Shown here in pieces: positions 12,316 to 13,188 of a stretch of DNA of 64,000 bases. Location of the stretch: assembly GCF_024223415.1 (NCBI RefSeq), contig NZ_CP100500.1. One strand, given 5' to 3'. The translations under genes were made by a program, and so were the position numbers. Each line of letters begins with the position of its first letter. Position 1 is the first letter of the stretch. The notes beneath the pieces are model-generated. The model searched no databases. It saw only the letters and a list, made by a program, of their open reading frames with translations, and was not told the DNA's origin. Source of the DNA: Escherichia coli. Its GTDB lineage: Bacteria > Pseudomonadota > Gammaproteobacteria > Enterobacterales > Enterobacteriaceae.

Positions 12316-13188
12316 TTAGTTAATCAGCTTATCAATCTCGGCAAGGGGTAAATTTGCCATCTCTGCAACGTCTTCCCGAGACATTCCTTTATTCAGAAGA
12401 CGCAGGACGAATTCTTGCCTTTCCTCCTGTCTTCCCCTCTCTTCAAACCACTGCGCCAGCGTCATCATAGACTCCCCTCCCGTTTCCCTGTCTCTCAGCA
12501 CACCATAAAACAAATCCGCTTGTTCAGTATGACCGCGTTGCAGCATATAGTTTTGCATGGCAACTAACTGACTTCCGCTAGTGTACCCTTCGTCAATCAG
12601 CGTGACCAGTTGCTCCAGCAATAACATTAAGTCGCGCTGGCGAATATGCTTTTGCAGTAGTTCGAGAATCGCAATCCGCCGATGTTGCATGATTTCGTCA
12701 TCCGGTGTGATAGTGATATCCACCAGCGGAAAAGGACTGTTATAGACGCGTCGCGCCAGCTCCGGCGAGTAAAACATATCAAACCAGCACATTGAGAGCG
12801 GATAAGGTGTGGTCTCGCCCTGATAAAACAGTATCGGCACCACCAGCGGCAGCTTATCGTGATCCGCCTCCAGATGCCGGTGCATGGCAGCAATAGAATA
12901 ACGCATCATGCGAAAGGCCATTTTCTTATCCGGCTTGCTTTGGTGTTCAATCACAACATGCAGATAACCGGGATTGCCCTGCATTTGCACGGAATAGAGC
13001 ACGTCCGTGCTGTGTCCTTTCAGGCTCTCTTCAATGAAACTCCCCGACTCTAAATGAAGCGTATTGAGGTCACAAAGTTCGCGTAATTCCACTGGCAAAT
13101 GTATCTCCAGAAAGTCGCGAGCCGTCTCCGCATGCATTAAAAATTGTTTAAATACCGCGTCATGCGGTGTAGTACTCGGTGCATCCAT
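12316..13188 (-). CDS. rpnC: recombination-promoting nuclease, Rpn/YhgA-like (PD-(D/E)XK family)
   Basis: 290 aa; N-terminal region carries the D...(V/I)EHQSK PD-(D/E)XK-type motif typical of YhgA-like proteins; located between panC and panD on the opposite strand as in the K-12 yadD locus. Confidence 0.8.
   Translation of the reverse strand: MDAPSTTPHDAVFKQFLMHAETARDFLEIHLPVELRELCDLNTLHLESGSFIEESLKGHSTDVLYSVQMQGNPGYLHVVIEHQSKPDKKMAFRMMRYSIAAMHRHLEADHDKLPLVVPILFYQGETTPYPLSMCWFDMFYSPELARRVYNSPFPLVDITITPDDEIMQHRRIAILELLQKHIRQRDLMLLLEQLVTLIDEGYTSGSQLVAMQNYMLQRGHTEQADLFYGVLRDRETGGESMMTLAQWFEERGRQEERQEFVLRLLNKGMSREDVAEMANLPLAEIDKLIN

Follow-up and report, generated by a model that had tools for sequence, protein, structure and literature searches.

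The rpnC locus between panC and panD

We analyzed a 64,000-nucleotide stretch of Escherichia coli DNA (the window), in which rpnC (yadD), a gene of 290 codons, lies between panC and panD and is followed by a detached open reading frame (ORF) homologous to its own 3' end (Table 1). In a RefSeq record that is 99.9% identical, the product is named "recombination-promoting nuclease RpnC". The protein scored 268.8 bits with NCBIfam TIGR01784, for which the cut-off is 52.1, and alignment with RpnA revealed conservation of the D...IEHQ motif region. PADLOC-DB v2.0.0, which holds no Rpn model, returned no match for RpnC. Members of the RpnL-RpnS family are recognized by an N-terminal YhgA-like PD-(D/E)XK nuclease domain, by an in-frame internal start with a Shine-Dalgarno (SD) sequence, and by hypervariable four-amino-acid repeats 8 to 20 residues past the initiating Met (Zhong et al. 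2023, PMC10400941). We found the nuclease domain and the internal start in rpnC, and the repeats RGRQ-EERQ begin at residue 11 of the small product, RpnC-S, within the expected interval.

Table 1. Coordinates of features at the rpnC locus, as positions in the 64,000-nt window
Feature	Position	Strand	Description and basis
rpnC (yadD), full coding sequence	12316..13188	-	290 aa, RpnC-L, toxic PD-(D/E)XK-family nuclease; ORF, RefSeq annotation, Pfam, NCBIfam
YhgA-like nuclease domain, residues 7-207	12568..13170	-	Pfam Transposase_31 / PF04754, E = 2.2e-87
89-nt invariant stretch	12506..12594	-	Candidate site of the internal promoter for rpnC-S and of the 5' leader of its transcript; longest invariant run in 12 distinct alleles
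SD run GGGAGGGGAG, codons T236-G237-G238-E239	12472..12481	-	Duplex energy -10.8 kcal/mol; invariant core GGGAGGG
ATG-ATG, codons 241-242	12463..12468	-	Internal translation initiation site of RpnC-S; ATG1 12468-12466, ATG2 12465-12463
rpnC-S, coding sequence of the intragenic antitoxin	12316..12468	-	50 aa from ATG1, 49 aa from ATG2
Four-amino-acid repeats RGRQ-EERQ, codons 251-258	12415..12438	-	Number hypervariable between strains; two more units in K-12
68-nt spacer, rpnC stop to detached copy	12248..12315	-	Constant length; 4 sequence variants in 16 loci
Detached RpnC-S-like ORF, 69 aa	12038..12247	-	Named "rpnC-Ss" in Zhong et al. 2023; aligns to the tail of RpnC
Terminator-like hairpin, with panC on one side and the convergent rpnC / detached-copy unit on the other	11947..11977	.	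12-bp stem, found on the + strand

A strong SD sequence precedes two consecutive in-frame start codons within rpnC

On the minus strand, positions 12480-12463 read GGAGGGGAGTCTATGATG, which places the in-frame order GGAGGGGAG-TCT-ATG-ATG at codons 237-242, on the boundary between the nuclease domain and the C-terminal tail. A first-pass annotation of this DNA had singled out a near-consensus SD sequence and ATG-ATG at codons 241-242 as positioned to express the C-terminal 50 residues separately, and the sequence bears out both statements. Since ATG1 is codon 241 of a 290-codon ORF, a product initiated there consists of exactly the last 50 residues, MMTLAQWFEE...EIDKLIN. The GGAGG core (12480-12476) is spaced 7 nt from ATG1, and a second GGAG (12475-12472) is spaced 3 nt from ATG1 and 6 nt from ATG2. 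ATG2 (M242) occupies the position homologous to RpnA M244, whereas the invariant GGAGG core is spaced best for ATG1.

Together, the 64 ORFs of the window that are 150 aa or longer contain 480 internal in-frame ATGs, and we ranked these by their predicted pairing with the 3' end of 16S rRNA. The rpnC double ATG came first, at -10.8 kcal/mol compared to -7.7 kcal/mol for the runner-up. Because this pairing is the strongest of all 480, a chance origin of the site is unlikely. Pairing at the starts of the genes themselves was also weaker than at the internal site (rpnC, -4.2; panB, -4.1; panD, -5.4; panC, -8.7). Folding of the 121 nt of mRNA around the internal start was not above that of shuffled controls (z = +1.27).

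Conservation of the internal start among E. coli alleles and paralogues

Both ATGATG and GGGAGGG were invariant in 22 E. coli loci, the tails of which are 50 to 74 aa long. Codon 239 varied at its first base (G/A/C, encoding E, K, or Q), with variants in 7 of the 22 loci (6 K and 1 Q; E239K accounted for 4 of the 12 loci of the first set), and through this change the second GGAG is lost in the same number of loci. A 50-nt stretch was at least 99% identical over its aligned part in 3,600 genomes in a megablast survey, a count that is too low, as alleles with a codon-239 variant offer no exact word of 28 nt. In 12 distinct rpnC alleles, synonymous polymorphism affected 3 of the 52 codons from 199 to 250, compared to 53 of the 198 codons from 1 to 198 (Fisher p = 6.6e-4). 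This drop in synonymous variation is consistent with embedded signals, and recent recombination could give the same pattern. Furthermore, the paralogues rpnA and rpnE carry an SD sequence and an ATG at the position equivalent to the rpnC internal start.

These observations bear on whether the SD-like run and the double ATG are merely coding by-products of Gly-Gly-Glu-Ser-Met-Met, with no functionally important separate product. GGA GGG GAG are ordinary Gly and Glu codons, and the variable first base of codon 239 leaves part of the run unconstrained. Nevertheless, the unrivaled pairing strength in the window, the invariance of the GGGAGGG core and ATGATG, the equivalent signals in rpnA and rpnE, and the identity of the sequence to that of K-12, where the small protein has been detected, make such a by-product highly improbable.

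Published K-12 evidence and a proposed gene-within-gene toxin-antitoxin pair

From upstream of the SD sequence through ATGATG and the TLAQWFEE codons, the DNA is the same as in K-12 MG1655; further upstream, the aligned stretch has 2 synonymous differences. Meydan et al. 2019 (bioRxiv 10.1101/520783), who were the first to map this start, listed yadD among genes with an internal in-frame start detected by Ribo-RET and reported locally enhanced synonymous-site conservation at this start. Zhong et al. 2023 (PNAS, PMC10400941) observed an Onc112/retapamulin ribosome-profiling initiation signal at the rpnC internal start and detected SPA-tagged RpnC-S by immunoblot, so that the initiation profiling and C-terminal tagging proposed in the first-pass annotation had already been performed for K-12. 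In the same study, RpnC-S blocked SOS induction by RpnC-L only when the four-amino-acid repeats were matched in number, and a mismatch of one repeat abolished this protection. Start-codon or SD mutants were described there for rpnA, rpnB, rpnP2, and a C. difficile rpn gene, with none for rpnC in the main text. RpnC toxicity is known only as SOS induction upon overexpression (Zhong et al. 2023, PMC10400941), and published antiphage activity concerns the plasmid-borne RpnP2 (RpnP2-LS) only, with none published for RpnC.

These findings support the earlier suggestion that the 3' end of rpnC is translated separately into a small protein of the RpnS type, given that the published experiments were performed with start-site DNA identical to that analyzed here. 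The site is very probably an internal translation initiation site (iTIS) of rpnC, and the gene a gene-within-gene toxin-antitoxin pair, RpnC-L/RpnC-S. Because the internal rpnC start and RpnC-S have already been published for K-12, the observation of an internal start producing the antitoxin RpnC-S is correct but not new.

We propose that rpnC encodes two proteins in the same frame, RpnC-L (290 aa) and RpnC-S (50 or 49 aa, from M241 or M242). RpnC-L would act as a DNA endonuclease of the PD-(D/E)XK type and, in excess, cause DNA damage, and RpnC-S would consist of the C-terminal helical tail alone. RpnC-S would have its own internal transcript, shorter and more abundant, and an SD sequence much stronger than that of the full-length start, and would for both reasons be in excess over the toxin. 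By its long first helix, which contains the four-amino-acid repeats, RpnC-S may bind the identical tail of RpnC-L and hold the nuclease inactive; because both proteins share one sequence, toxin and antitoxin would be matched automatically. By extension from K-12, the same mechanism would apply to the present allele, the tail of which is two repeat units shorter.

The internal transcript

An internal transcription start site was stated for all rpn genes on the basis of dRNA-seq (Zhong et al. 2023, PMC10400941). A scan of positions 11900-13500 for consensus sigma-70 promoters found no internal promoter, and a relaxed scan yielded only weak candidates, such as TGGTCA-17-TACACT with its -10 element at 12585..12580. 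We rejected a weak candidate that is conserved in rpnA and rpnE, since it lies inside the protein-conserved DDEIMQH codons and its conservation is indistinguishable from coding constraint. No terminator-like site was found in the spacer between rpnC and the detached copy. The hairpin beyond the detached copy is likely the end of the rpnC-S and rpnC-Ss transcripts, and its palindromic stem could serve both directions.

Repeats and predicted fold of the RpnC-S tail

The region between LAQWFEE and KGM ranged from 16 to 40 residues among strains, in steps of 4. An AF2 model of the 50-residue RpnC-S was compact and all-helical (pLDDT 86.8). Foldseek comparison of this model with the PDB gave no significant match; the best matches were generic helix-turn-helix (HTH) domains with non-significant E-values, and the RpnA-S structure 7TH0 was absent from the top 50. 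Similarly, a phmmer search of the PDB with the 50-mer missed 7TH0 and returned a designed repeat protein as the best match. The RpnC tail matched Pfam DUF4351 (PF14261) only weakly (E = 0.04).

The HTH-like matches raise the question of whether RpnC-S is mainly a DNA-binding regulator, for instance an autorepressor of the rpnC promoter, instead of a direct protein-protein inhibitor. The best structural matches of the model were of the KorB, Hin, resolvase, and LuxR types (TM 0.6-0.75), Pfam HTH_7 gave a weak match, Zhong et al. 2023 (PMC10400941) noted a relation to HTH motifs by HHpred, and both activities are common among type II antitoxins. Against this reading, in addition to the non-significant Foldseek E-values, RpnA-S, once purified, inhibits the nuclease in vitro and complexes with RpnA-L (Zhong et al. 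2023, PMC10400941), and the specificity for repeat number favors protein-protein pairing. We consider a mainly DNA-binding role quite improbable.

A detached copy of the tail differs in repeat number from the resident RpnC

The detached copy downstream of rpnC, to which the first-pass annotation had also drawn attention, is real, and Zhong et al. 2023 (PMC10400941, Fig. 2I) reported that some E. coli strains carry such a copy, rpnC-Ss. As a separate tail-homologous ORF beside an rpn gene, it has the arrangement that defines a stand-alone RpnS. It matched the C-terminal part of TIGR01784 (E = 2.8e-8, below the cut-off), and no match to Pfam DUF4351 (PF14261) was found in it. A weak match of this ORF to RmrA was returned by PADLOC. 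The ATG-ATG is missing from the detached ORF, which has AGG CAG instead and begins 11 codons upstream of this site, with an N-terminal extension of 9 residues (MEIKTRRET); its SD sequence, AAGGGA (energy -5.3), is carried by the 68-nt spacer. We found the architecture of rpnC with a detached copy in 1,554 of 5,426 complete E. coli genomes, from diverse lineages, and it was absent from ~70%.

The repeat region of the detached copy has 24 residues, the same length as in the K-12-type tail, compared to 16 residues in the resident RpnC tail, a difference of two units. Resident and detached lengths were unequal in all 14 distinct allele combinations, and the difference was not a multiple of 4 in 8 of them. 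This never-equal pattern is not statistically significant, since an equal-length pair is expected in only 14% of random re-pairings. The tail of K-12 RpnE and YpaA are likewise mismatched, by one unit. The mismatch between resident and detached copies is thus a small, descriptive addition to the literature.

We weighed three readings of the detached copy. It could provide the resident RpnC-L with a second cognate antitoxin that is decoupled, as implied by the "two-layer" module that the first-pass annotation had proposed for the panC-panD intergenic island, and a PNAS commentary likewise proposes decoupled regulation. Its homology to the RpnC tail, the lack of a terminator between it and rpnC, its intactness in the 14 distinct combinations, and the translation of the analogous YpaA/RpnE-Ss in K-12 are in line with this role. 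However, the lengths were never equal in these combinations, the K-12 RpnE tail and YpaA are themselves one unit apart, and a mismatch of a single repeat abolishes RpnC-S protection (Zhong et al. 2023, PMC10400941). With a mismatch of two units, the detached copy should therefore not form a second antitoxin layer. By the published rule on repeat matching, the resident RpnC-L is most likely not neutralized by it, the two-layer claim is unsupported as stated, and a cognate role appears unlikely.

Alternatively, the detached ORF may have no function and be a leftover, now decaying, of a recombination event or an incomplete duplication. In several genomes it is called a pseudogene fragment by PGAP, the ATG-ATG has been lost and the SD sequence is weaker (-5.3), polymorphic codons in its C-terminal part are 9 nonsynonymous versus 4 synonymous, and most genomes lack the copy. 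In contrast, every sampled allele has an intact ORF and a conserved start, none of the ORF's first 63 nt varies among the 10 distinct DNA alleles present in the first 16 loci, the ORF is retained in genomes of diverse lineages, and it varies in its own repeat number as functional RpnS proteins do. In-frame preservation is weak evidence of function because slippage of a 12-nt repeat is in-frame anyway. On this evidence, decay is possible, if doubtful. Among the five loci added later, one (L022) carries R10W in the detached ORF.

Lastly, rpnC-Ss may be kept out of register deliberately, either as a silent tail-switching cassette or as a non-self antitoxin for an RpnC-L of another length. Considering the mismatches in all 14 combinations and in K-12 rpnE/ypaA, such copies would not be spare cognate antitoxins. 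If rpnC-Ss is a silent cassette, a tail swap by recombination would change toxin and antitoxin specificity in one step. We advance deliberate mismatching only as a tentative and rather speculative suggestion.

Relation to known systems

The present gene and K-12 RpnC-L/RpnC-S occupy the same panC-panD site, with identical DNA through the SD sequence, the ATG-ATG, and the first codons of the tail. Within the N-terminal 250 residues there is a single difference, and the tail motifs TLAQWFEE...KGMSREDVAEMANLPLAEIDK are shared. The repeat region has 16 residues here (RGRQ-EERQ-EFVLRLLN) but 24 in K-12, and the proteins have 290 aa and 300 aa, respectively; the downstream detached copy is present in this strain and absent from K-12. 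In RpnA-L/RpnA-S (K-12 yhgA; structure 7TH0), the best-characterized member, an in-frame SD sequence and ATG likewise lie at the homologous domain boundary. RpnA reads AAGGAG at K240/E241, 6 nt before the ATG of M244, a start validated by mutation, and these residues align with RpnC G238/E239 (GGGGAG) and M242. RpnC differs from RpnA by its second ATG, an extra upstream GGAGG core, and a stronger SD sequence (-10.8 versus -8.5), and the two tails are too diverged to be linked by sequence or Foldseek searches.

The K-12 pair rpnE-ypaA (RpnE-Ss) resembles rpnC with rpnC-Ss in having a detached tail copy just downstream with a repeat number unlike that of the resident tail. Whereas ypaA retains the parental SD sequence and ATG exactly (AAAAGGAGAGATTAATG, -8.7), the detached rpnC copy uses a new upstream ATG and a weaker SD sequence. 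As in classical type II toxin-antitoxin systems, a protein antitoxin that is helical or HTH-like and in excess would neutralize a protein toxin. However, classical type II systems consist of two separate adjacent genes, an arrangement that rpnC does not have, as the RpnC antitoxin is an in-frame C-terminal proteoform inside the toxin gene.

A gene-within-gene antitoxin is important because a single reading frame encodes both a toxin and its own inhibitor. Finding it again at this locus adds no biology, since it was published in 2023 with rpnC among the genes tested. The repeat-length mismatch, if real and selected, would change how the second copy is read, which the literature has taken as a decoupled antitoxin, and would point to a route by which toxin-antitoxin specificity may rapidly diversify.

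The internal start site of rpnC

The ORF between panC and panD is annotated as rpnC, recombination-promoting nuclease RpnC, in the 99.9% identical record of E. coli AR_0085, and K-12 MG1655 rpnC (b0132, formerly yadD) occupies the same place. Residues 7-207 of its product matched Pfam PF04754 (YhgA-like; E = 2.2e-87), and the whole protein scored 268.8 bits against NCBIfam TIGR01784 ([quoted passage not shown]; cut-off, 52.1). The strain is not K-12, and its 1.5-kb locus had only seven matching records at or above 99%. The panC-panD insert (11943-13461) has a G+C content of 47.6%, and its detached-copy part 42.9%, against 51.4% for the window and about 53% for the pan genes, which is consistent with acquired DNA.

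Features of the rpnC locus and Rfam matches elsewhere in the window
Feature	Coordinates	Strand	Remarks
panC	11091..11942	+	flanks rpnC
Terminator-like hairpin	11947-11977		next after the detached copy; common to convergent panC
Detached copy (rpnC-Ss), 69-aa ORF	12038..12247	-	68 nt downstream of rpnC stop
rpnC ORF	12316..13188	-	290 codons
SD core GGAG	12475-12472	-	3 nt 5' of ATG1, 6 nt 5' of ATG2
SD core GGAGG	12480-12476	-	7 nt 5' of ATG1; overlaps the second core in the same run
panD	13462..13842	+	flanks rpnC
Three tandem naRNA4 (CssrE), STnc40, tp2, and PssrA	50908-51216, 51620-51689, 37018-37131, 57336-57425	-, -, +, -	above Rfam gathering score; unrelated to rpnC

On the minus strand from 12480 to 12463, rpnC reads GGAGGGGAGTCTATGATG, with Shine-Dalgarno (SD) cores preceding two consecutive in-frame ATGs, ATG1 (12468-12466, codon 241) and ATG2 (12465-12463, codon 242). 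For a chance test, we scored 480 internal in-frame ATGs from the 64 window ORFs of at least 150 aa by the best duplex that the 18 nt upstream could form with the 16S rRNA 3' end. The rpnC ATG pair ranked first at -10.8 kcal/mol, followed by a runner-up at -7.7, and pairing at the annotated starts of rpnC (-4.2), panB (-4.1), panD (-5.4), and panC (-8.7) was weaker than at the internal site. Predicted folding of the surrounding 121 nt did not exceed that of shuffled controls (z = +1.27), which leaves the site unobstructed by structure. The first-pass annotation had described a strong SD and an ATG-ATG inside rpnC, and every detail was borne out, including the sequence, the codon numbers, and the detached copy. 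Its proposed product was also exact given initiation at ATG1, which would yield precisely the C-terminal 50 residues of RpnC, MMTLAQWFEERGRQEERQEFVLRLLNKGMSREDVAEMANLPLAEIDKLIN.

The internal start and its antitoxin reading are already known. Meydan et al. (2019, bioRxiv 10.1101/520783) listed yadD among genes in which Ribo-RET maps an internal in-frame start and reported preserved potential initiation sites with local enhancement of synonymous-site conservation, including in yadD. In K-12, whose start-site DNA is the same as that of the window, initiation occurs within rpnC, as shown by Onc112/retapamulin ribosome profiling, and the small C-terminal protein, RpnC-S, accumulates, as seen by immunoblot of a chromosomally SPA-tagged form (Zhong et al. 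2023, PMC10400941, Fig. 2G). dRNA-seq in that study placed a transcription start inside every rpn gene, the short transcript being more abundant than the full-length mRNA, and RpnS proteins were antitoxins of the toxic RpnL nucleases, each specific for its own RpnL. The earlier proposal of an RpnS-type small protein is thus the correct reading, as well as the published one for K-12. Our literature search found no later paper on the function of RpnC-S or RpnC-Ss.

Conservation of the start site and surrounding codons

We compared 22 E. coli rpnC loci, comprising the window, K-12, and 20 others across the whole similarity range. The ATGATG and a GGGAGGG core were invariant in all 22, with tails of 50 to 74 residues. 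The sole variable base of the SD run was the first base of codon 239 (window 12472-12474, minus strand; GAG, AAG, or CAG for E, K, or Q); K in six loci and Q in one destroyed the second GGAG while keeping the GGAGG core. With 50 nt around the site as query, the site in the middle, megablast found matches in at least 4,557 of 5,426 complete genomes, with at least 99% identity over the aligned part in at least 3,600, counts that are lower bounds because megablast cannot seed on codon-239 variants.

A MAFFT alignment of the RpnA, RpnC, and RpnE proteins places K240-E241 (AAGGAG) and M244 of RpnA, which were validated by mutation (Zhong et al. 2023), opposite G238-E239 (GGGGAG) and M242 of RpnC, respectively. 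rpnE and ypaA carry AAAAGGAGAGATTAATG at the equivalent position. The sequence points both ways on the start codon, with ATG2 homologous to the RpnA start and the invariant GGAGG spaced best for ATG1. The codon-239 alleles bear on the choice between ATG1 and ATG2 in different strains.

Among 12 distinct alleles (codons 1-251), synonymous polymorphism affected 3 of 52 codons at 199-250 versus 53 of 198 at 1-198 (Fisher p = 6.6e-4). The longest invariant runs were CDS nt 716-751 (12473..12438), spanning the SD, the ATGs, and TLAQWFEE, and nt 595-683 (12594..12506), an 89-nt stretch inside the 52-codon zone nearly devoid of synonymous polymorphism. This low variation agrees with the result of Meydan et al. 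and fits a promoter, a leader, and an RBS embedded in the coding sequence; recent recombination could also have produced it. With embedded signals, the 89-nt stretch would presumably serve as promoter and leader of the internal rpnC-S transcript; a convincing sigma-70 motif was not found. A consensus promoter scan detected none internal to rpnC, and a relaxed scan gave weak candidates only, such as TGGTCA-17-TACACT (-10 at 12585..12580).

The 50-residue RpnC-S was modelled as a compact all-helical domain (single-sequence prediction, pLDDT 86.8). Foldseek returned for this model only nonsignificant HTH-type matches and did not retrieve the RpnA-S crystal structure 7TH0; these predicted-fold matches would be consistent with the HTH relatedness remarked on by Zhong et al. 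(2023) but do not by themselves assign RpnC-S to the RpnA-S fold.

A proposed mechanism for the window allele

K-12 RpnC differs from that of the window at one position within the N-terminal 250 residues, and the DNA is identical from upstream of the SD through the ATGATG and TLAQWFEE. The 4-aa repeats differ, RGRQ-EERQ in the window versus KGIE-KGIQ-QGRQ-EVSQ in K-12, leaving the window tail two units shorter. In K-12, RpnC-S in trans suppresses DNA damage signalling induced by the full-length nuclease, RpnC-L, if repeat numbers are equal, and for RpnA the short form associates with the long form and prevents it from cleaving dsDNA in vitro (Zhong et al. 2023). The short-tail allele of the window probably works like the K-12 pair. 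Synthesis of RpnC-S would out-compete that of RpnC-L because of the SD energies (-10.8 versus -4.2) and the internal transcript, and toxin and antitoxin would be unable to drift apart because the codons are common to both. One hint to toxin release is alkaline pH (Zhong et al. 2023).

A detached copy downstream of rpnC

The detached copy noted downstream of rpnC is real and is of the rpnC-Ss type that Zhong et al. (2023) described from some E. coli strains. Its tail homology starts right after the ATG-ATG position, where it has AGG CAG, and its own start lies 11 codons upstream (MEIKTRRETRQ) behind a weaker SD, AAGGGA (-5.3). We found no terminator-like site between the rpnC stop and the copy, and the next such hairpin lies beyond it, so cotranscription with rpnC and rpnC-S is likely. 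The spacer (12248-12315, minus strand) lacks homology to the K-12 flank, so simple tandem duplication of the tail does not account for the copy. Within the spacer, the 10-nt sequence CCAGATAATT occurs twice in direct orientation, at 12292-12283 and 12267-12258. Just 3' of the ORF is a perfect 7-bp hairpin, ACGTCAT-cgcc-ATGACGT (about 12003-12020, minus strand), missing from the corresponding flank in other sampled strains.

With a 301-nt query (spacer plus copy), of which a minimum of 80% had to be present, we found this architecture in 1,554 of 5,426 genomes, including CFT073 and ST131 strains. The ORF was intact in the loci examined, and the spacer was 68 nt in all 16 measured. Its first 63 nt were invariant in 10 distinct DNA alleles from the first 16 loci, and a later locus (L022) carried R10W. 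Coding selection is not demonstrated, because the C-terminal part had 9 nonsynonymous versus 4 synonymous polymorphic codons and its 12-nt repeats give in-frame indels anyway. The ORF is probably a real small gene that is inconsistently annotated. RefSeq/PGAP labels were of four kinds (loci L001 and L003-L024): pseudogene "hypothetical protein, missing N-terminus," pseudogene "transposase," "hypothetical protein," and "RpnC/YadD family protein." Residues 21-67 also weakly resembled PADLOC RmrA (E = 5e-4; profile positions 290-336 of 357), probably through common HTH-like helices.

Repeat lengths of the resident tail and detached copy

For both copies, we determined the length of the LAQWFEE-KGM interval (window 12038-12247 versus 12316-12468, minus strand; loci L003-L024; L013:12817-13002). 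This interval spanned 16, 28, 32, 36, or 40 residues in resident tails (window, 16) and 20, 22, 24, 26, or 28 in detached copies (window, 24, equal to the K-12-type tail). The two lengths were unequal in all 14 distinct combinations (21 loci), and in 8 of the 14 the difference was not a multiple of four. When the observed lengths were re-paired at random, at least one equal pair arose in only 14% of cases, and shared ancestry makes the loci non-independent; the inequality describes two nearly disjoint distributions and is not a significant association. The K-12 RpnE tail and YpaA are likewise one 4-aa unit apart (QEGMHEQ versus QEGKLEGLHEQ).

RpnC-S blocks RpnC-L-dependent SOS induction only at equal 4-aa repeat number, and a one-unit mismatch abolishes protection (Zhong et al. 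2023, Fig. 4D); therefore, the detached copy should not neutralise the resident RpnC-L. Judged from sequence, the mismatch would argue against the decoupled antitoxin suggested in a PNAS commentary. The first-pass annotation had also proposed a two-layer toxin/antitoxin-like or antiphage module, which is speculative and is disfavoured by the 24-versus-16 mismatch under this rule; the published antiphage phenotype belongs to plasmid RpnP2-LS, not RpnC (Zhong et al. 2023). The remaining interest of the locus lies in the role of length-mismatched detached copies.
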